Shown: in pieces, positions 699-11,928 of the stretch
Numbering within the stretch: the first letter of the stretch is position 1
Layout: each line of letters starts with the position of its first letter
Origin: Escherichia phage vB_EcoM_PTE-Eco09
Sequence record: PQ306574.1
DNA length: 64,000 nucleotides
Direction: 5' to 3' (one strand)
Program-made: the position numbers and the translations under genes
The notes under the pieces: generated by a model
The model's input: only the letters and a program-made list of their open reading frames with translations
Told to the model about the DNA's origin: nothing
The model's database searches: none

Positions 699-718
699 AG
701 GCCGAAAGGCTTCCCCTT
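699..718. terminator. GC-rich hairpin between convergent genes
   Basis: GGGGAGGCC-GAAA-GGCTTCCCC stem-loop flanked by A/T runs between ORF 439-687 (+) and holin (-). Confidence 0.4.
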
Positions 719-722
719 TAAG

Positions 723-1379
723 TTATCTAATCCTTCCGAGGATTCTGGCAGATTGATTGCAAAGAGTATCTAAATTCTCAATGTCAATATCCGGTTTATT
801 CTTCCATGCAATGGCGATACTACCAGAATAGACATTATCGAGATTGAATATAGGGCAAGAATACATAAACCCTATATCGATACTCTCTAATTTCTTTTCT
901 CTTGATGGAATATACTGGAAATCTTTATCGGTAAAATAGGATTTACCTAAAAGATGCCTACGATATTCTTCACTCGTTTTATTGATAGGGAATCCGCCTA
1001 AATTCTTTTCGTCGATTGTATGAGGTAACTTTCCTTCATATGCCACCAAATCAACAAAATAGTTTAGGTTTTTCGGACGAAAACTAAAAACAGCAGAAAA
1101 ATCGGCATCAGCCGACACATGAACTATCTGTAACTGCTCCTGTGCTGCATTATCAAAATTGCGGTCTTTCTCTACCTGGAGAACGTGAGCATAAGTCTCA
1201 TAACGAGTCTCTTTATAAAGCGCAAATAACTCGTTTTTACTATAAACGACAAATGCTAATATGGACAACACGACGGCAGCAAAAACACGAAGTACGAGCA
1301 ACTCCGTGCTTTTAGTTGTGAAAATAGCGCGCAGGACATTTGAGATAGCAAAGTCTTTCCCTTTTTCAGAAACTTGCAT
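723..1379 (-). CDS. t: holin T
   Basis: 218 aa; N-terminal TM segment; strong match to T4 holin T motifs (YETY, EQLQIVHVS, FSAVFSFRPKNLNYFVD, YMYSCPIFNLDNVYSG, ARILGR). Confidence 0.9.
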   Translation of the reverse strand: MQVSEKGKDFAISNVLRAIFTTKSTELLVLRVFAAVVLSILAFVVYSKNELFALYKETRYETYAHVLQVEKDRNFDNAAQEQLQIVHVSADADFSAVFSFRPKNLNYFVDLVAYEGKLPHTIDEKNLGGFPINKTSEEYRRHLLGKSYFTDKDFQYIPSREKKLESIDIGFMYSCPIFNLDNVYSGSIAIAWKNKPDIDIENLDTLCNQSARILGRIR

Positions 1380-1412
1380 ATAATGCCCTAAGATAACTAT
1401 GACAGTGTACTC

Positions 1413-1652
1413 TTATTTAGGTAGTTGACTATCACTAGGGTTATCTTGCTCGTTACTATCTTCTGACTGATCTTTATTAAACTCCTTATAAAGTTCTTCC
1501 ACAAAACGATCATCAATTGGCGTATTGGTATAAGCCGCAAGACGACGAGCGCAATAGAAGAAAATTTTAGTGAGCATCTTTTCACTAATTAGCTTTGACA
1601 ATAATTTCATTCCGAAATTAGACAAAGCACCAATGACGATATTATAGACCAT
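1413..1652 (-). CDS. hypothetical small protein (79 aa) between gene 37 and t
   Basis: ORF in the position where T4 carries gene 38; no similarity to gp38 noticed; hydrophobic N-terminus, acidic C-terminus. Confidence 0.35.
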   Translation of the reverse strand: MVYNIVIGALSNFGMKLLSKLISEKMLTKIFFYCARRLAAYTNTPIDDRFVEELYKEFNKDQSEDSNEQDNPSDSQLPK

Positions 1653-1692
1653 AGCCGTTTCTCCTTAGTAGTTCCCTTCCCTGGGAGTTTCC

Positions 1693-4635
1693 TTAATTCT
1701 TTTTAAGTTCCGCTAGTTCAGCTTTAACGGCTTTCAATTCTTCGCTCATTTCCTGAAACGCCTTAATTAAAAGAGCGTTGACAGCGGAGTTAGAAATTGT
1801 TAAGATCTCTTCTGGATTATCTGGATCGCCGATCTTAGAAGTTGTTACGGCTTCCGGCAATTCTTTTTCAAGATCCTGAGCAATAATACCAACTTCATGA
1901 GCAATGACAGTACGGTCGGTTAAAGATTTAACCTTGTCATAGGTGTATACCGTCAAGCGATTAACTTTATCGGTTGCATTCTCTTTATACTCTTCCTTGT
2001 TGATTTTAAGGCGAGCATCAGAACGAATATACACATCGTTAAAGTTACCATTGCGACCAGCTTGGAAATCACCGGAGGCGTTAAAGTCAAAGTTTGTGGT
2101 ATGAATATGAAGACGTGCCATAGCATTAGTAATAACACCACTAGGAACGTGTACACCCATTGCTGCGATGTGGTCGAAACCCCATTTGGTCGCTTTCCAT
2201 ACGTTATATGCGGAAGTTTGAGCATTAGGACAATCAACCAATAAGCCAGCAGCGCGAGTTTTCCATTCTGACCATGCACCACCTTGTACTTCTCCGCGAA
2301 TCAGGCCATTACCATCACCGGATACAGTGCCAGATTCCAACTGGATCATTTTATCCGCAAATTTCCACGCCTGGGCTTGTTTCTGACCACGGAAGCGAAT
2401 AACACCAGCATCATCGCAGTACATCAAGCCTAACTCTAAACCGTTTGGATCTCTAAACCAGATGTGCTTATTGCCAGTGCGTTTAAACTCAATATCAGCA
2501 CCGTTCAGGGTAATATTACCGCCAGTGTGAATTGCTTTAGGCTTAACAGTACCATTAATGCCAAACTCGATTAATTCAGTACCCGGACCACCCGCACGTT
2601 GAGTATACCAATGCCAGCCGCTTTCATCAGCACATTCAAATACTTGTTTACGAGCATCAGCGCCCCATGCACGAATATTGAAACTAGAAGTAGCTGTACC
2701 CTTACCCCAGCGAATCAGACCAGCAGATTCCAAATCACCGAAGAATTTAGTTTTAATCGCACCAGTTGCTAAAGTACGTTCAGTGGTGAAGTGAGCACCT
2801 TTACTATCTTCAAGCTGTATAACGTTATCACGAGCGTTATTGCTATCGCCCCAATGACTCAAACGGAAATAGTCGCGGGATTGTCCAGCACCAGCATCAA
2901 ATGTTAAATATTGGCCTTTAATGTATGTGTTTCCAGCAAAACGAGCAGCACGACTTGCACGTTCTAAGACTAATGCACCTTCTTTACCATCACCACCCAA
3001 AGTAACATTACCGCTACCCAGATTGTAAGTGAATGGACGATAGCCGTTCCAACCACCAAATTTATCATTTTCGGCAGTAGACAGAAGATATACGTTTTGA
3101 CCATCATTACGCCAGAATGCACCATAGTTACCGTAAATCATACGGAATGCATCACTGTTAGCAGCTACATATTGACCATTGGTGTATACAATTTTTGTTT
3201 TTCCTGTAGTCAAATTTACTTGTCCACTACCTTCCAAATCAAATGAGTTAGCACCAACATCATTACGCCACACAAAACCATCACTAGTACCATCCGCATG
3301 ACCGATATAACCACTACGTTGGTTTTTACCATCACGACGATCCCACCACGCCATATATGCAGCTTGACCAGTCTGTCGATGTAAAGTCATCGCATTACCA
3401 CCACCGTGCAATTCCATTTTACCAGTAATTACATATCCTTTATAATTACCCGGTATTGCACTATTAGAATCAATTCTAATAACTTCTGTAGAATCTGTAG
3501 CACCAGTAGCAAGACGATATACAGCACCCTGAACGGTTTCATGCCAGGTCATTTCATTATAGTTACTACGGAATTTACGAATATATTTTCGTCCAGTACC
3601 CCTATCATTACTCAAGTGAACAATATCATAACTGTTTTGTGTGTTATCGTCAAAACTCAACACACCTCGTTTGTTTTCGGTGTTGAAAAGAGTTACAGCA
3701 CGACCGCCAATAACATTATCACCAGCAGGACGTTCAGCAACAAAATCTGGAACGTCATGAACTACCAGATTAACACCAACACTTTTACCAAATTCAACAA
3801 TAACGTTATCAGTGTAACGCTGATATTTCACATAGATATCATAGTTATCACCAGAAGTATTAACAGCCAAAACATCAAATGATTTGTTTGTATTTCGGCG
3901 ATATGCAATAACGTTAACACCTTTAGGGCGACCATTTCCACTGCGAATAACAATTTCTACAATATCAACTTGATCGTATGCAGTAACGTTATATCCGTTA
4001 CCGCCATGAATACGGAAAAATACGCTAAGACCGTTTTGTGGAATCATTGCAGTTGCTAATTTAAAATAGCCTTCAACGATATCACTAGGAGATGTAGCAA
4101 GTTTAACGTTCTTAACAAACATACGGTCAACTTCTTGTTTGCTATAGACGTTCAATTCTCCTGGAGTTGGTTTATCACCTTCGTGATACATTTTATAGCT
4201 AAATGCTTTTTGACCTTCTCTATTATAGCCATAGGTTTCAACACGAGATCCAGCAGACGCATAACGGAAAGTAAATCCGCGACCGTGCGCTTTACCGGCA
4301 GAATGAGGAACGTTAAGAGTTAGATCCCTGAGTCCATCTTGACCATTGGTACGGAAAGCACCAAAGTAGTTAAGATCTCTCGCTGTCTGGTCTTCCAAAT
4401 AGTTAGCTGTTTTACTTAAGATATAATTATTACCTTTAACCTTACCCGCCATTGTAACATCGCGGTCATACACCGGAGGACAACTTAAATTGATAATATC
4501 ACCGGAATCATTTTTAGTAAGAAGATATTGATCCGCAAGGTTGATTGCCAATTCCCCCGGATTCATCGTACTAGCATCCGGTTTACGACCTTTAGTGCTA
4601 GTGCGTTTAAATTGGATTCTGCTTAAATCTGCCAT
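1693..4635 (-). CDS. 37: long tail fibre distal subunit gp37 with C-terminal intramolecular-chaperone (peptidase S74-like) domain
   Basis: 980 aa; N-terminus MADLSRIQFKR…GELAINL matches T4 gp37 N-terminus; C-terminal ~110 aa carry SDARLK…GIIAQDL…coiled-coil typical of self-cleaving chaperone domains of endosialidase/T5 pb1 type. Confidence 0.85.
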   Translation of the reverse strand: MADLSRIQFKRTSTKGRKPDASTMNPGELAINLADQYLLTKNDSGDIINLSCPPVYDRDVTMAGKVKGNNYILSKTANYLEDQTARDLNYFGAFRTNGQDGLRDLTLNVPHSAGKAHGRGFTFRYASAGSRVETYGYNREGQKAFSYKMYHEGDKPTPGELNVYSKQEVDRMFVKNVKLATSPSDIVEGYFKLATAMIPQNGLSVFFRIHGGNGYNVTAYDQVDIVEIVIRSGNGRPKGVNVIAYRRNTNKSFDVLAVNTSGDNYDIYVKYQRYTDNVIVEFGKSVGVNLVVHDVPDFVAERPAGDNVIGGRAVTLFNTENKRGVLSFDDNTQNSYDIVHLSNDRGTGRKYIRKFRSNYNEMTWHETVQGAVYRLATGATDSTEVIRIDSNSAIPGNYKGYVITGKMELHGGGNAMTLHRQTGQAAYMAWWDRRDGKNQRSGYIGHADGTSDGFVWRNDVGANSFDLEGSGQVNLTTGKTKIVYTNGQYVAANSDAFRMIYGNYGAFWRNDGQNVYLLSTAENDKFGGWNGYRPFTYNLGSGNVTLGGDGKEGALVLERASRAARFAGNTYIKGQYLTFDAGAGQSRDYFRLSHWGDSNNARDNVIQLEDSKGAHFTTERTLATGAIKTKFFGDLESAGLIRWGKGTATSSFNIRAWGADARKQVFECADESGWHWYTQRAGGPGTELIEFGINGTVKPKAIHTGGNITLNGADIEFKRTGNKHIWFRDPNGLELGLMYCDDAGVIRFRGQKQAQAWKFADKMIQLESGTVSGDGNGLIRGEVQGGAWSEWKTRAAGLLVDCPNAQTSAYNVWKATKWGFDHIAAMGVHVPSGVITNAMARLHIHTTNFDFNASGDFQAGRNGNFNDVYIRSDARLKINKEEYKENATDKVNRLTVYTYDKVKSLTDRTVIAHEVGIIAQDLEKELPEAVTTSKIGDPDNPEEILTISNSAVNALLIKAFQEMSEELKAVKAELAELKKN

Positions 4636-4675
4636 TTTATAAAATCCTTAAACGGTTATTAGAATAATATTATTT

Positions 4676-4700
4676 AGAAAAGCGGGGAGATAATCCCCGC
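4676..4700 (-). terminator. hairpin after gene 36
   Basis: GCGGGGA-GATAA-TCCCCGC stem followed by T-run on minus strand. Confidence 0.4.
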
Positions 4701-4705
4701 TAAAA

Positions 4706-6196
4706 TTAGAAAGTACCAAAATCAATCACCGCATTAAGTGGAACCGCTCCAACATCAGCCGGAGTAGGTTTATTACCTTCATGATAAAGCTGATAGCGGT
4801 CCACGGTTTGAGTATTGTTTCGAGAACGGAAAAACACGACCTTTGAGTCGTGGGTGATCCCCAGCTTTTCGGTCCCTTTAATATCACTAATGCGGTGAAT
4901 CATAGCAGTACCATCAGCACCGCTTAACGCCGCATAACAGTTATCCCCGTTATAGTTAGTTTTAGCTGTTCTAACGCCATTTGCAGCCGGAACAGTTAAC
5001 GGTCCTGTCATGGTATCGCCAGTTACGTTAACATAGCGAATATCGGCTAATTTACGGTGATCTACATAGTTCCATGCAGTCCAGGATTCATTAGAACACG
5101 AACGCCAGCACATCGGATGGTCAATAGATTCAGGATAATACACCTGAACAATTCGACGAGTACCGACCGCATCTTCTGGTCGATATACCATCAAAACGCC
5201 GTTATAATAGCTATCAGACGGTTTATTAGTACCTGACCCAGCATTTTCCACACGATAGATACCGCGATTAATAAGAGTGTTCCAATCAACGTTTCCAATG
5301 ATGGTTGGATTTGCTACCATTGATTTTCGCTCAAAGTAGCTCAAACGAACCAATTCATTAGGACCAGCGGGATCGTTTGTCGCCAACATTCTAGGCGCTT
5401 GCAAGTTACCTTCCATAATATCACCAGCACGTTTAACCTGTGCATCATTGGTGACATTGCCTAGCCCAACATCGGCTTTAGTTGGTTTATTGTTGGTGTG
5501 ATAAAAACGACCTTCTCTGCCATTAACAAAAATGGTAGGCTCATCTTTACTTCGGAAGACCAACGTATCAAGAACGTTACCATAATAGATCTTAGTCGCA
5601 TCAAAATTAATTAAATCACGTTCCCTTGCAATTAATTTCGAATCAACCGATAGTTTAACAGTGACAGTGTTTAAATTATACGTTCCTGAGAGAGTATCAC
5701 CGCGACGGGAAACTAAATCCAAATCATTATTCGTTGGTTTATTAACAGGGCTATAGACACGTTGACCTGTGTCTTTAATGGTTGTCCCTTCGATAGTCCC
5801 TTTAGACTTAAATTCGCCCGTTGTGGTGTCAATATACGCCATAATAACGCCATCACGGGCATTAACAAAGCCGATTGACTTCCATGAATGCAAACCCCAG
5901 CTTACGCCGTCAAAATTAGCAGCGTCGCTCTGACCTTTAAAGATACCATTCTTTTTGGTTTCTCCAGCCGATGCGCTACCTACGCTTAAACCTTCCTCGA
6001 AATGAACTTGCTTTTGAAATGTGCCACCTTCGGATGCACTAACAGCATCAAAATCGGTAGCCGAAGGTCTATCAAAAGCGGTATAGATTTTATGACCTTT
6101 GTAGAAAAGCTGATCCCCCGCTGGCTGGATCGTCAAGTTTCCTTGCGTCCAAATGGGAGATCCACCTACAGTAGATCCATATTTCAAATCTGCCAT
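4706..6196 (-). CDS. 36: long tail fibre subunit gp36 (enlarged, 496 aa)
   Basis: N-terminus MADLKYGSTVGGSPIWTQGN…PAGD matches T4 gp36 N-terminus; about twice T4 gp36 length. Confidence 0.8.
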   Translation of the reverse strand: MADLKYGSTVGGSPIWTQGNLTIQPAGDQLFYKGHKIYTAFDRPSATDFDAVSASEGGTFQKQVHFEEGLSVGSASAGETKKNGIFKGQSDAANFDGVSWGLHSWKSIGFVNARDGVIMAYIDTTTGEFKSKGTIEGTTIKDTGQRVYSPVNKPTNNDLDLVSRRGDTLSGTYNLNTVTVKLSVDSKLIARERDLINFDATKIYYGNVLDTLVFRSKDEPTIFVNGREGRFYHTNNKPTKADVGLGNVTNDAQVKRAGDIMEGNLQAPRMLATNDPAGPNELVRLSYFERKSMVANPTIIGNVDWNTLINRGIYRVENAGSGTNKPSDSYYNGVLMVYRPEDAVGTRRIVQVYYPESIDHPMCWRSCSNESWTAWNYVDHRKLADIRYVNVTGDTMTGPLTVPAANGVRTAKTNYNGDNCYAALSGADGTAMIHRISDIKGTEKLGITHDSKVVFFRSRNNTQTVDRYQLYHEGNKPTPADVGAVPLNAVIDFGTF

Positions 6197-6229
6197 AAAG
6201 TAACCTCAAAAATTAGTTATAGTTCCGAG

Positions 6230-6237
6230 TATTTATA
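6230..6237 (-). promoter_or_regulatory. T4-type late promoter (TATAAATA) for gene 36
   Basis: TATAAATA on minus strand about 34 nt upstream of gene 36 ATG. Confidence 0.5.
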
Positions 6238-6398
6238 GAATGTTAACAAAATATCGCTTCGCGACGTGCCGTAGGCACTGGCTATTTTTTAACCGAAACA
6301 AATTTTCTATTATTCTAAAGATCTTTCTTCGTTTTGGTTACAATTTAACCAACTGTATAAAAATAAAGCCGACCACATGGATCGGCTTGTTAAAAATG

Positions 6399-7538
6399 TT
6401 AATCAACATCGAACTCTTTAAAGTTGTTGGATGTGATGTGTTTATTATCTCTGGGTAGTTTAAGAAGACTCATTACAGGGTTAGTAAAATCACCGTTATC
6501 CTGAATATGAGTTGTTCTAACACCATTAACACCAAATGAAGTAGGACCAGTAGTTTTGACGACTCCACTGATCGGCGTTATTAGTATGTTTCTAATTTTA
6601 ACCATACCTTCATTGGAGTTGGTTGGATATCTGATACAACCAGTTACTACACTATCAACTCCTTCCGGTACGGTATAGACGGCTTCAAACTTTTCCCATT
6701 GGTCTTTTTTGCTGGCATTGTATCGAACACCAGTTTGATATTGTCCATCGGTGAAGTAGTTGTGATAGAAACGCGCTGTTACGTTGGCTGCGGCTGCGGC
6801 ACTATCACGGAACAATTCAAAGGATATTGATAGTTTGTCACCTGCCTTTATGTTAAAATCCTCAAGTGGGGCGCTGGTCTCATCATGAGGCCATTGTATT
6901 AGCTCGAAATGTTCGGCATCTTCGCTAACATACTCAACCGGATAATCTAAAAATCGTTGTGGTGTTCCTGTTATAGCAAGATCATCTATAGTATCATAGA
7001 CTTTCTCAATTTGTATAGATGAATCTTGTCCTTCCCCGTGAGTTGCTTGCATCCCTTCGCACACAATTTTACCCATTTTAGTAGAATAAATTGCTGCATA
7101 TGATACACGAGGCATTTGCTGTAGCAAAATGTGATTCGGGAATGATACAGATCCCAGCTTAGAGAATACACCATCACTGATCGGATCTGCAAACAATTCT
7201 CCATGCGTTGCCATCGCAATGATATAGTCACCTTTCAGCAAAGAAAGATAATCACGCATTGCCAAAACAGCACCGCGACCATAGAATACCTTTTCTTCGT
7301 GTAGTTGTCCAGTTGGAGTAAGAACTTTAAAATTTAGGCCATTTTCATAGCCAGTGCCAACGATCTCCACTCCATTAAATCTAATCCTTGCTGGTTTGGT
7401 AGAATCCGCATTAGATCCGCGCACTTCCAGCTTATACATCACAGAGTTATTTTCTGAAATGCTGGTAAATGTCGCAGAGTCTTCGTCGAAATGCGCAAAC
7501 CTAATTCCAGTATTGCGTAATTCTATATCTTGTGTCAT
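6399..7538 (-). CDS. 35: long tail fibre hinge protein gp35
   Basis: 379 aa ORF between 34 and 36, size and position as T4 gp35 (assignment by synteny). Confidence 0.65.
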   Translation of the reverse strand: MTQDIELRNTGIRFAHFDEDSATFTSISENNSVMYKLEVRGSNADSTKPARIRFNGVEIVGTGYENGLNFKVLTPTGQLHEEKVFYGRGAVLAMRDYLSLLKGDYIIAMATHGELFADPISDGVFSKLGSVSFPNHILLQQMPRVSYAAIYSTKMGKIVCEGMQATHGEGQDSSIQIEKVYDTIDDLAITGTPQRFLDYPVEYVSEDAEHFELIQWPHDETSAPLEDFNIKAGDKLSISFELFRDSAAAAANVTARFYHNYFTDGQYQTGVRYNASKKDQWEKFEAVYTVPEGVDSVVTGCIRYPTNSNEGMVKIRNILITPISGVVKTTGPTSFGVNGVRTTHIQDNGDFTNPVMSLLKLPRDNKHITSNNFKEFDVD

Positions 7539-7571: not shown

Positions 7572-10500
7572 TTAGTCTTCCCAGATAAAGTCTACGGTAC
7601 GAGTCAGATTATTGGCGATGATTTTAACATTACCAACCTTGATCCAGTCACGAACCGTCATAGAGTTCATTAAACCACCTTCTGCAACAACTGCCCCGAT
7701 TTCCTGAGCGGTAGGCTTATTCTGTTTGGTGTAAATTTCACCCCATGCGGTCCATTGACCACCAGTACCGGAACGGATATAATGTTTATGAGTACCATCA
7801 GGGGACCAAAGCTGGGTAAGCCCGTCCGCGTCAGTACCCCATTGCATCAGAGTACCGTTTTTCTTCTCTGGATAAGTTTCTTTGATGTTCTGGGTAGTAA
7901 CTCGCATATTCCAGAAACCGATGTTACCGATTGCCGGAGCGGTTGCCGCGCTAGCTTCATGCTTAACAGAAACAATAGGCGCATTATCCATAGTCAGCTT
8001 GCCGACCATTGTATCGCCAGCATTCTTAACAAACCGACGGTTAAGAACTTCGTCGGCGTTTCCTGCGTGTACGATCTGATATTTCTGTCCGGCGATCTCT
8101 GTAGTTAACGTTTGAGAACCTGCCTTGATGTTAACACTTCCACCGTGACCGATATTCAGCGTACCATCTGGGGAACGAGTCATTGCCGGATTAGACTGGT
8201 CAACAATGTATAAACCGCCTTGTTTCGCATACAGGTTACGACCTGCAATAAAGTCTCTATATGCTGTCGCGTCGCCATTGTGTTTCATAGCAAAGGCGTA
8301 ATGCTCAACGACTCCACCATCATTGATTTTACCGAAAGAGATAGCATCACTATCAACAACTTGCGCTGTTCCAGTACCACCAACGATAATAGACCAAGAG
8401 TTTTTCATTCCTTCCGATGCGGTTGTGCCATGCAGAGTAATTCCGGTGTGACCGTCAACTCCACGATCACCCAACACCAGATGACCATTACTCGGAACAT
8501 CGGTCGAGTTCTTAGTCACAGACAGAGTTTCAAAGGAACCTGATTTTAAGCACTCTAAATCGCCCTTCACGTTAACGTTTTTATTAAACGTGTAATTGCT
8601 CTCTATGGTCTGATCAATGTCTCTACGCGCCCATTTAGAGGCCTCTACGTTACCCAATTTCAAACTATTCTGAGCGGTTGCCATCTTAGGTAAGAAATTA
8701 GCAAGTGCGTAGTTTAATCCTTTAGGGGTAACAGCAATTCCGTCATGCTGGTAGTTTCCTAGTTCTTGAGTAGAACCTTGCAGATTATCACCAACAAAAC
8801 AGTTTTCCTGAGTAGCAACTTTCAAGAATCCACGACGCGCTTCGGTTGCTTTCCATGTATCCTCTGTCTGAACAACATATTTGAAGTTCTTCGGAGAAAT
8901 TGCTACATTGTCCATAATACCAGCCACGGTTTCGGCGTGAGTACCAACTCGGATAATACCTTCTTTACCTTCGGTGGCCTTTTTGCCTTGCAGCTTTTTA
9001 GGCGTGATGATTGTAGTATCATCTTGACCAGCGTCAGTAAGCTGAGTAGTCGCAACTTTAGCGACACCTTTTGTATCTTCGGTTGCATCCAGACCGCTGA
9101 TCATGATACCTTGCCACAAATCACCAGTAAGGTTAAGCCCCTGAGTCGGATCTACTTTCAAACGCTGTGCATTCTCAAAGAAGGTTTTAATCTTCAATGG
9201 GGTAGAAATGCGATCATCGTCACGACCTGCGTCAAATTCCGGCTGAGTTGCAATTTCTGCTAAACCGTGTAAAGTTTCCGTTGCGCGGCGAGTATGCAAC
9301 TTTTTAGGCGTGATGATATGGTTATCACTTTGACCTAAGTTTGTTTCTTCCTGAGTTGCAATTTCAGCGATACCAGTGCGCGATTCGGTAGCAGTACGTT
9401 TCGTTAGCGTGCGAGTCGTGATTAGTAAAGCATCTTGCGGGGTTGATTCTGTAGCCCCTTGCACTTCCGCGTCAGTTGCCAGATAGCCAACACCACGGGA
9501 AGTTTCGGTCGCCTTGACTTCGTTGATGTTTTGTGGCGTAACAATTTTAGCATGGTCGTTGATGTTATAGATCCCTGTACCAGCTTCGCCACGTCGAGCG
9601 GCAGCACTACCGCCAACCTGAACAATTTCAGCAATACCAGCGAGATCTTCGGAAGCGCGACGTTCTTCTAATTTCTTAGGAGTTATTGCGCGAGTATCGT
9701 CTAAACCTTCATTGGTTTCGTGCTGGGTTGCAATTTCCATCACACCACGACGGGCTTCGGTAGCAACACAGTCATTTAACTTTTTGGGTGTAACGATAAC
9801 ATCATCCAGGAAGTTGGAACCAGTATCTTGATGCGTTTCCGCTTGAGTCGCAATGCGAGCAATACCGCGTCGAGTTTCGTTGGCTGTTTTATTAGACAGC
9901 ATTTTTGGTGTTACAGCAACTTCGTCGCTAGGATTCTCTTCATGGTTTTTATTCGTTTCAGTCTGGGTAGCCAGTGCAATTACACCAACACGATCTTTAC
10001 GAGTCGGATCTACTCGTTCTACAATCGGGTGAGCATGTGCCACCAACCAGTATTTCTTACCATCATCACCTTCTGAATAAGAGAACTCCAGATAAGGTAC
10101 ATAATCATTTGCAGCGTTGAAAGACAATTCAGACACTCCAGTCCATGTATCGGTCCCATTGAATGGGTACTCGCTACGCTTAGGAAACTGAACCATGTTT
10201 TTCTGCATAAGGATTTTTGTATCCTCTTCTGAGGTAATGATTCGGCAAGTCTGGTTTCCGTGCATATACTGCATAGAAACTTGAATACGATCACCCGGCT
10301 CGACATTGGTCGGCAGCGTCAGAGTAACATCACGACCACCAAATACAGCAACATAGCTATTAGGTTGCAAGCGAGTGTCATTGATGATCGGTTTAAGACG
10401 AACAGACTGATCACCATCCCACAAACGCCATAAGTTTTCCGTCTTGTCAAAGATGAATACACCATGACCGCTACGCTTACCGATAATCTCTTTTAGACCG

Positions 10501-11312
10501 GACGTGCCAATTGATTGTTCTTCTGCGTGCTCATGAACTTTAACCGTAACGTGGTTGGTTGCGGTTAATCCGTCAAGGTCTGTAGTCTGGATCATGTCGC
10601 CATTGTTGGCAAACTTAGGAAGCACTAAGGTAATATTACCCAACGAACTACGACGAAATACCTGATCACCATTCTGCATTTGAATAGCATCAATCGCTGG
10701 CTGTGCGTACACACCGCGTGGCTCTGTTCCTGTCTGATAAACATGCCAACGATTACGAACAAAGATGAAATAGTTCATTGCATACGGGGTAGTGCAATAC
10801 CATTTTCGGTTGTACACATTACCGTTATGGTAAAACTCATGTCCTGTACTCAAAAACGATAATTCGTTAACACCACACTTGCCACCGATATCTTTTACTG
10901 TTATAGTGTCTCCCTCTGCTGGTTTAGTTGGCATAGAGAAAGTCAAGTTTGCAAATTGACCATCTGCTGCGATATAATCACCAGACTGTAAAGGAGTATC
11001 ACCGGAAGTTGCTGCAATATAATCCCAACGTGGGTCCGTGCGCAGTGCTTGCCATTTAGTCGGGTCAAAATCACCTGCTGGCTTTGTGATATCTTCTTTT
11101 GCATAATACGGACGGTTTTGATAGATTGTAGTTCCGTATTGATCATAACCGCGAGTTGTGTCATACTGAGTAATGCCATTATGGTAATTGAAAAATTCAA
11201 CGTTGACCGCATCCGTTGATGTGTTTTTATCTGCGTATGCTACATTGACGACCTTTTCATTACCAGCGTCAAAGCCAAATGTGGCCTTGAAATGTTGAGA
11301 AAAATCTGCCAT
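7572..11312 (-). CDS. 34: long tail fibre proximal subunit gp34
   Basis: 1246 aa; N-terminus and C-terminus (…GNVKIIANNLTRTVDFIWED) match T4 gp34; about 10 tandem ~35-aa ATExRRG…ATQ…ITPKKL repeats as in T4 gp34. Confidence 0.9.
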   Translation of the reverse strand: MADFSQHFKATFGFDAGNEKVVNVAYADKNTSTDAVNVEFFNYHNGITQYDTTRGYDQYGTTIYQNRPYYAKEDITKPAGDFDPTKWQALRTDPRWDYIAATSGDTPLQSGDYIAADGQFANLTFSMPTKPAEGDTITVKDIGGKCGVNELSFLSTGHEFYHNGNVYNRKWYCTTPYAMNYFIFVRNRWHVYQTGTEPRGVYAQPAIDAIQMQNGDQVFRRSSLGNITLVLPKFANNGDMIQTTDLDGLTATNHVTVKVHEHAEEQSIGTSGLKEIIGKRSGHGVFIFDKTENLWRLWDGDQSVRLKPIINDTRLQPNSYVAVFGGRDVTLTLPTNVEPGDRIQVSMQYMHGNQTCRIITSEEDTKILMQKNMVQFPKRSEYPFNGTDTWTGVSELSFNAANDYVPYLEFSYSEGDDGKKYWLVAHAHPIVERVDPTRKDRVGVIALATQTETNKNHEENPSDEVAVTPKMLSNKTANETRRGIARIATQAETHQDTGSNFLDDVIVTPKKLNDCVATEARRGVMEIATQHETNEGLDDTRAITPKKLEERRASEDLAGIAEIVQVGGSAAARRGEAGTGIYNINDHAKIVTPQNINEVKATETSRGVGYLATDAEVQGATESTPQDALLITTRTLTKRTATESRTGIAEIATQEETNLGQSDNHIITPKKLHTRRATETLHGLAEIATQPEFDAGRDDDRISTPLKIKTFFENAQRLKVDPTQGLNLTGDLWQGIMISGLDATEDTKGVAKVATTQLTDAGQDDTTIITPKKLQGKKATEGKEGIIRVGTHAETVAGIMDNVAISPKNFKYVVQTEDTWKATEARRGFLKVATQENCFVGDNLQGSTQELGNYQHDGIAVTPKGLNYALANFLPKMATAQNSLKLGNVEASKWARRDIDQTIESNYTFNKNVNVKGDLECLKSGSFETLSVTKNSTDVPSNGHLVLGDRGVDGHTGITLHGTTASEGMKNSWSIIVGGTGTAQVVDSDAISFGKINDGGVVEHYAFAMKHNGDATAYRDFIAGRNLYAKQGGLYIVDQSNPAMTRSPDGTLNIGHGGSVNIKAGSQTLTTEIAGQKYQIVHAGNADEVLNRRFVKNAGDTMVGKLTMDNAPIVSVKHEASAATAPAIGNIGFWNMRVTTQNIKETYPEKKNGTLMQWGTDADGLTQLWSPDGTHKHYIRSGTGGQWTAWGEIYTKQNKPTAQEIGAVVAEGGLMNSMTVRDWIKVGNVKIIANNLTRTVDFIWED

Positions 11313-11346: not shown

Positions 11347-11928
11347 TTGTGTGAGGTGTTTGTTGTGGCAAAAACAAAATTTTGGGATATCGAGACACAG
11401 AAAGCGATAAAAGGTAGATTCTATCATGTCGATGGAATATTATACCATTTAAAGGATTCTGTAGCTGCTGGATTCCGAAAAGAAGGGTCCATATACAAAA
11501 AAGGTGATGTGGTAAGGGTATGTCTCCATAAAGAAGGATATTTATACTTTACATTTTACAACAATGGTCATAAACTTAATCTGTTTGTACATAGAGTTGT
11601 CTGGTTTTTAGAGTATGGTACTCAGGTTGAACGAATAGATCACATAGACCAAGACAAAACTAACAATAGACCGTCAAACATGAGAGAAGCAACCGAACAG
11701 CAAAATCAGTTTAACGTCTCAAAGAAAAAGGCTTGCCATAGCAAATATAAAGGTGTATCATTATCACCAAGCAAGAAAAAGCCGTGGAAGGCGTATATTG
11801 TTATCAATCGAAAGAATATACATCTAGGATACTTTGAGACAGAAGTTGAGGCGGCTAAGGCTTATGACCGTGCAGCACATGAAATAGTTGGCGAGTATGC
11901 TTATTTAAATTTTCCAAAAAGAGGATGA
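11347..11928 (+). CDS. HNH homing endonuclease with AP2 DNA-binding domain
   Basis: HNH motif (ERIDHIDQDKTNNRPSNMREATEQQN) plus AP2-like domain (YKGVS…WKAYIVINRKNIHLGYFETEVEAAKAYDRAA); track start is TTG, true start likely slightly downstream. Confidence 0.65.
   Translation: MCEVFVVAKTKFWDIETQKAIKGRFYHVDGILYHLKDSVAAGFRKEGSIYKKGDVVRVCLHKEGYLYFTFYNNGHKLNLFVHRVVWFLEYGTQVERIDHIDQDKTNNRPSNMREATEQQNQFNVSKKKACHSKYKGVSLSPSKKKPWKAYIVINRKNIHLGYFETEVEAAKAYDRAAHEIVGEYAYLNFPKRG

Follow-up and report, generated by a model that had tools for sequence, protein, structure and literature searches.

The long tail fibre of the analyzed phage very probably ends in a tip of the T2/S16 type, as is standard for RB49-like phages, with an intramolecular chaperone of the Peptidase_S74 family at the end of the distal subunit gp37 and with gene 38, which encodes the adhesin, at a distant locus. 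This arrangement is already known and represents the published design of RB49 and of the majority of T-even phages. The S74 domain acts in partnership with gp38 and is not a substitute for it, because cleavage of the chaperone exposes the docking surface for gp38.

Nucleotide searches assigned the window, i.e., the whole analyzed stretch of 64,000 nt, to the genus Krischvirus, the RB49 group of T4-type coliphages, and the first 25 kb were concordant with this assignment. The region 700–6300 could be aligned to RB49 over its full length with an identity of about 90%, and its identity to many relatives was 91–96%. The long tail fibre module is located on the minus strand and has the T4 order, with gp34 (7572–11312, 1246 aa), gp35 (6399–7538, 379 aa), gp36 (4706–6196, 496 aa), and gp37 (1693–4635, 980 aa). 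On the same strand, gene 37 is followed by a small ORF of 79 aa (1413–1652), which is called Dc5 in RB49, and by the T4-type holin gene t (723–1379, 218 aa). The gp37 protein matched phrog_1699, "long tail fiber protein distal subunit", with E = 3e-185, the small ORF matched phrog_402 with E = 5e-20, and the holin matched PF11031 with E = 8e-61 and was 48% identical to T4 T. The enlarged distal connector gp36 matched phrog_16472 over its full length, and its N-terminal 171 aa were 37% identical to T4 gp36. The T4 record contains the order 37-38-t and lists 221 aa for gp36, 1026 aa for gp37, and 183 aa for gp38. Therefore, the remark in an earlier sequence-only reading that gp36 has about twice the T4 size was correct. 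However, 496 aa is the standard size of this gene in RB49, and it bears nothing on the assembly of the tip.

A box that resembles T4 late promoters (TATAAATA, 6230–6237, minus strand) is present upstream of gene 36, as a match to the consensus only. A search for further boxes of this type in the intervals that separate gene 37 from the small ORF and the small ORF from t revealed none. The three genes therefore probably share a transcript that originates at the box ahead of gene 36. Signals for sigma-70 promoters and for terminators around the locus did not exceed the shuffled expectation.

The last 109 residues of gp37 (aa 872–980, nt 1696–2022, minus strand) appear to constitute a real and, judged from the conserved residues, catalytically intact S74 domain. 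They start with SDARLK, include GIIAQDL, and end with N980; the codon of S872 occupies nt 2020–2022. In the Pfam search, PF13884 matched aa 872–931 over profile positions 1–58 of 58 with E = 1.4e-11 and 45 bits; the cut-off of the family is 22 bits, and the score of gp37 is far beyond chance. When the C-terminal 279 aa were compared with the PDB sequences by phmmer, the sole significant match was gp37 of Salmonella phage S16 (6F45_A, E = 9e-5), and the alignment placed DVYIR-SDARLK opposite DLNVS-SDRRIK. Thus, S872 and K877 of the catalytic motif S872-D-A-R-L-K877 (nt 2005–2022, minus strand), which form a Ser-Lys dyad of the type S-x4-K, align to SDRRIK of the S16 protein. In an alignment of 21 gp37 homologues, S872, D873, and K877 turned out to be invariant.

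The fold was predicted with AlphaFold2 for a monomer of aa 801–980 (180 aa). The mean pLDDT was 77.8, with values of 73–95 across the domain. In the monomer model, a helix of 31 residues (aa 949–979, nt 1699–1791, minus strand; DSSP helix 149–179 of the model, pLDDT 86–94), which presumably forms a trimeric coiled coil, comes after a small beta-rich core. A Foldseek search of the PDB with the monomer model returned top matches that all belong to the S74 family, i.e., the ICA domain of MyRF (7DC3), the GA-1 chaperone (3GUD), and the chaperone of the endosialidase endoNF (3GW6). The best match was 7DC3 with E = 8.5e-5 and a TM-score on the target of 0.65 for the monomer. The sequence-only reading had recognized an S74-type intramolecular chaperone at this end of gp37 and had located gp37, SDARLK, GIIAQDL, and the terminal helix. 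All of these are indeed present, and the PF13884 profile match, the homology to S16, the invariant Ser, Asp, and Lys, and the similarity of the predicted tip domain to solved S74 domains all agree with the proposal.

Conservation is unevenly distributed along gp37, which is 80% identical to its RB49 counterpart overall. The chaperone domain is 92–97% identical to RB49, whereas segments upstream drop to 46–80%. Patches of 46–72% identity are found at aa 151–350 and 651–850, and the latter, just ahead of the predicted cleavage site, is variable among the relatives (62–80% identity to RB49). This divergence from RB49 is allelic variation of the shaft.

From these results and from the homologous systems, the following route to the mature tip can be proposed. 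The sequence shows a gp37 precursor of 108 kDa (computed mass 108.3 kDa). The fold and the family of the C-terminal 109 residues are those of an S74 chaperone, and, by analogy to family members from endosialidase, T5 pb1, and S16, the domain would trimerize and template the folding of the preceding fibre. The chaperone would then release itself between R871 and S872 with the aid of the S872/K877 dyad, as suggested by homology to S16 and the fPS phages, and R871/S872 is thus the predicted scissile bond. The computed masses of the products are 96.1 kDa for the mature gp37 and 12.2 kDa for the released fragment. In the mature 96-kDa protein, the terminal DVYIR strands would form a flat trimeric platform, as in the S16 structure. 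A single glycine-rich gp38 adhesin could dock onto this platform through its N-terminal tryptophans and would bear the receptor specificity, as has been published for RB49. For Krischvirus as a whole, we infer from S16 and T2 that gp37 is cleaved.

Several observations at the junction are in agreement with this route. The published cut sites are DLNVS^SDRRIKK in S16 and DVYIR^SDGRLKI in the fPS phages (PMC7917993), and both are matched by DVYIR|SDARLKI of the analyzed gp37, so that the docking strand directly precedes the cleavage site. This strand, D867-V-Y-I-R871 (nt 2023–2037, minus strand), is the last one of the mature protein and, based on its conservation and the S16 structure, the predicted docking platform for the N-terminal domain of gp38; a docking role of the terminal DVYIR strand has been described (PMC7917993). 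In the gp37/gp38 system, it is the cleavage of the chaperone domain that exposes the docking surface (PMC9569957, PMC7917993). NDVYIR is conserved in most of the 21 homologues, and the junction NDVYIR|SDxRLKIN is common to Krischvirus and Tequatrovirus. Because, in addition, the identity between RB49-type gp38 and the gp38 proteins of some Tequatrovirus phages reaches 90%, the sequences would fit a scenario in which adhesins are freely exchanged while their socket is conserved.

The search for gene 38 itself showed that, in RB49 and in most of the relatives listed, the gene is displaced and not lost. In the 64-kb window, tblastn with gp38 of RB49 and of T4 yielded no match better than E = 2, and tblastn with RB49 gp57A and T4 RIII yielded nothing significant. 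However, the window is syntenic to about 92–156 kb of RB49, and both g38 (at 45 kb) and the gene for gp57A (at 61 kb) of RB49 lie outside of this span. RB49 g38 is RB49p079 (45.4–46.1 kb, 258 aa), which is annotated as "similar to T2 and RB69 gp38 adhesin" and is separated from gene 37 by about 105 kb. The encoded protein is homologous to S16 gp38 (6F45_D, E = 1.5e-50), including the N-terminal residues W7 and W20. With RB49 gp38 as the query, tblastn showed that, of the 30 closest relatives listed, at least 22 have a full-length copy of the gene at a distant locus, among them ELT3, Phi1, JSE, ECD7, TB34, and SAP as well as SSG23, Whisky, Cognac, GEC-3S, and JK32. The displaced gene 38 and the small ORF Dc5 appeared already in a publication of 2002. 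Both were also treated by Trojet et al. 2011 (PMC3157838), and Efimov et al. 2022 (PMC9569957) put forward the model of a self-cleaving gp37 capped by gp38 for RB49. They found that RB49 gp38 recognizes OmpA and O antigens and that the host-range mutations E230K/Y231S map to gp38.

These results put three proposals of the sequence-only reading into perspective. The statement that gene 38 is absent holds for the 64-kb window, but not at the level of the genome, as judged from RB49 and the relatives listed above. The inference of a loss had no basis, because only the canonical position within the window was in view and the region syntenic to g38 lies outside. The proposed different route of tip assembly is indeed different from that of T4, with an S74 domain and without a needle, but it very probably follows the published T2/S16 route of the majority of T-even phages. 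Likewise, the receptor specificity differs from that of T4, as had been suspected, but, as in RB49, it would reside in gp38 and not in the end of gp37 (PMC9569957).

Two other explanations of the tip have to be considered. The chaperone domain might have replaced gp38, so that receptor binding is left to the tip of the mature gp37, similar to the T5 L-shaped fibre and the endosialidase tailspikes, and no separate adhesin exists. The lack of a gp38 homologue in the 64-kb window, the authenticity of the S74 domain, and the variability of aa 651–850 among the relatives would all be compatible with such a replacement. Nevertheless, it is very improbable, because the majority of the closest relatives listed encode a full-length gp38 elsewhere, the host-range mutations of RB49 are located in gp38 (PMC9569957), the docking motif NDVYIR|SD has been conserved, and the region syntenic with RB49 g38 lies beyond the span of the window. 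In the relatives, on which this comparison was based, a tip of the T5 pb1/endosialidase type, which has no capping adhesin, was not found; gp38 is encoded and, in RB49, host-range mutations are located there. The least probable explanation is that the S74 domain is a degenerate remnant that is no longer cleaved and is kept on the mature fibre. It would be compatible with the literature, in which nothing usable on virion proteomics with processed gp37 was found for Krischvirus, nor any other direct proteomic data on this protein. However, in a remnant of this kind, neither the invariance of Ser, Asp, and Lys of SDxRxK nor the high conservation of the domain next to much more divergent upstream segments would be expected, and a retained domain would block the docking surface for gp38 (PMC7917993). 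Taken together, a cleaved chaperone that makes way for a gp38 encoded elsewhere remains the preferred explanation.

In the Krischvirus genomes, the slot between gene 37 and t, which is the position of gene 38 in T4, is filled by the 79-aa ORF. A 2019 paper draws it as "Dc5" in the fibre loci of pseudo-T-even phages (PMC6832132). The sequence-only reading had regarded this ORF as unrelated to gp38, and this was corroborated by the hhalign probability of 0.3% versus T4 gp38. It is thus not a diverged T4 gp38, and the 7-mer EELYKEF, which is shared by the two proteins, is due to chance. The T4 antiholin RIII could be dismissed as well (hhalign probability 0.1%). The ORF carries a precomputed PF26925 label; NCBIfam and the local copy of Pfam gave no match to it, and no mention of PF26925 was found in the literature.

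The small protein is 96–99% identical across Krischvirus, and about 330 other phage records contain homologues of 30–47% identity; most of these records are from Felix O1-like Ounavirinae, and others are from Erwinia, Vibrio, and Aeromonas phages. The family is widely distributed among virulent phages that infect enterobacteria and vibrios. No prophage copies were detected when 185,579 species genomes were scanned, and a scan of metagenomes added only three further informative contexts. The phrog_402 family has an N-terminal helix that is moderately hydrophobic, on the Eisenberg scale similar to the membrane helix of holin T. This helix is followed by a second one, which is amphipathic, by a T-x-T-x-x-D-D motif that is invariant in the family, and by an acidic tail. 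From these features, the conserved protein might have a membrane helix.

The gene neighbourhoods did not yield a uniform picture. In Krischvirus, the neighbour is holin T, and in the Ounavirinae, it is a protein with a single membrane pass and a coiled coil, which has been termed a holin by some annotators. In the podovirus Vibrio phage 1.061.O, the homologue directly follows an endolysin of the GH108 type, and no fibre gene is located upstream. In three T7-like contigs, it lies between a small membrane/coiled-coil protein on one side and terS-terL on the other, which is the slot of the T7 holin gp17.5. In Aeromonas phage LAh_6, the neighbours are structural genes. Based on these contexts, the ORF can tentatively be viewed as a component of the lysis module, either as a small membrane protein that would partner or regulate the holin or as a holin itself. 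However, fibre genes also adjoin the homologues in most of the lineages examined, and therefore, the contexts do not separate a lysis role from a fibre role.

Alternatively, the 79-aa protein could act at the fibre tip, where it would substitute for the function of gene 38 as a small chaperone or assembly factor of a new type. In Krischvirus, the Ounavirinae, Lahexavirus, and the T7-like contigs, the ORF is located behind a fibre or needle gene, and in the analyzed genome it is apparently co-transcribed with gene 37. Nevertheless, this role is unlikely. The Vibrio phage homologue behind the endolysin argues against it, as do the unrelated tip types of the preceding fibres, i.e., S74 in Krischvirus versus a gp37_C needle in Sf13. 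Furthermore, the ORF is nearly invariant in Krischvirus and does not share the variability of the distal gp37, and a hydrophobic N-terminal helix is unlike known fibre chaperones. On balance, the evidence leans towards a membrane protein of the lysis module, at something between a tentative possibility and an even chance, over a fibre factor.

The significance of these results beyond a correct annotation is small. Nevertheless, host-range predictions for this phage should be based on gp38, the gene of which lies about 105 kb away in the relatives, rather than on the end of gp37. In T4-like genomes more generally, a gene that is missing from its T4 position cannot be taken as absent from the genome.

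Several known systems are similar to the analyzed locus. In RB49, the gene order and sizes are identical, with 496 aa for gp36, 979 or 980 aa for gp37, 79 aa for Dc5, and 218 aa for t. The nucleotide identity of this region is about 90%, whereas that of the gp37 proteins amounts to only 80%. With the S16 tip (6F45), the phage shares a homologous gp37 chaperone domain and the same S-D-x-R-x-K at the cleavage site, and RB49 gp38 is homologous to S16 gp38 down to the N-terminal tryptophans. In contrast, gene 38 directly follows gene 37 in S16, T2, and T6, where the 79-aa ORF is found here and gene 38 is displaced in the relatives. In addition, the residue before the cut is Ser in S16 and Arg here, and the gp37 shafts are unrelated over most of their length. 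The endosialidases of K1F/NF and T5 pb1 belong to the same Pfam family and have the Ser-Lys dyad, the fold class, and the C-terminal position on a trimeric fibre in common with gp37 (the T5 fibre structure is cited in PMC6832132). However, their mature fibre or spike bears the receptor-binding or enzymatic domain, whereas here cleavage would lay bare a docking site for a separate adhesin. The similarity to T4 includes the N-terminus of gp37, which is homologous (46% identity over 71 aa), and the same neighbouring genes 34, 35, 36, and t. In T4, gp37 is aided by the chaperones gp38 and gp57A. It ends in a His-rich needle without an S74 domain and needs the adjacent 183-aa gp38 chaperone, and neither is present here. 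In accordance with this difference, no gp37_C Pfam match was found in gp37, and BLAST against the C-terminus of T4 gp37 and against T4 gp38 gave no significant match.

The gp38 adhesins of Tequatrovirus (e.g., PaulHMueller) and those of the RB49 type, represented by RB49 gp38 itself (locus L003, 15368-16144, minus strand), shared up to 90% identity, and the gp37 junction motif NDVYIR|SDxRLKIN was common to several genera. Taken together, these sequence similarities suggest that adhesins have been swapped across genera on a conserved socket.

A protein of 303 aa encoded on an E. coli assembly contig (P0031) combined a gp38 adhesin N-terminus with the gp37 S74 chaperone domain at its C-terminal end, and PF05268, PF21721, and PF13884 were all present. 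This protein arose either by recombination or as a chimera of the assembly.

The small ORF between gene 37 and the holin gene t (1413-1652, minus strand) belongs to a family (phrog_402/PF26925) with an invariant TxTxxDD motif. Further members were found in other phage records and contigs (L004:4992-5186, L005:5004-5213, L006:4992-5201, L007:3992-4192, L045:3992-4183, L050:974-1180, and L051:1802-1993). In at least five unrelated lineages of virulent phages, a family member neighbours a holin-like or endolysin gene or occupies the position of the T7 holin gp17.5. No copy was detected when the genomes of 185,579 bacterial and archaeal species were scanned.

Ounavirinae loci also encode a phrog_4038 protein (L004:5186-5560 and L006:5201-5536). 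The Sf13 representative, annotated as a "holin", carries a single membrane helix at the N-terminus and, after it, a long coiled coil, an architecture nearer to that of an inner-membrane spanin than to that of a classical holin, and therefore, the label may be wrong.

T4 late promoter-like TATAAATA boxes were located just upstream of gene 36 (6230-6237, minus strand) and gene 34 (11539-11546, minus strand); across the window, boxes of this type totaled eight, which is not above the shuffled expectation.

The middle of gp37, at 3025-3360 (aa 426-537) and approximately 2497-2685 (aa 651-713), both on the minus strand, is similar to the trimerisation region at the C-terminus of T4 gp34 (PF21446, E=1.5e-41; PDB 4UXE) and to tail fibre S of phage Mu (5YVQ), whereas T4 gp37 is far less similar to it than these two proteins are. 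Therefore, the gp37 shaft is a mosaic.
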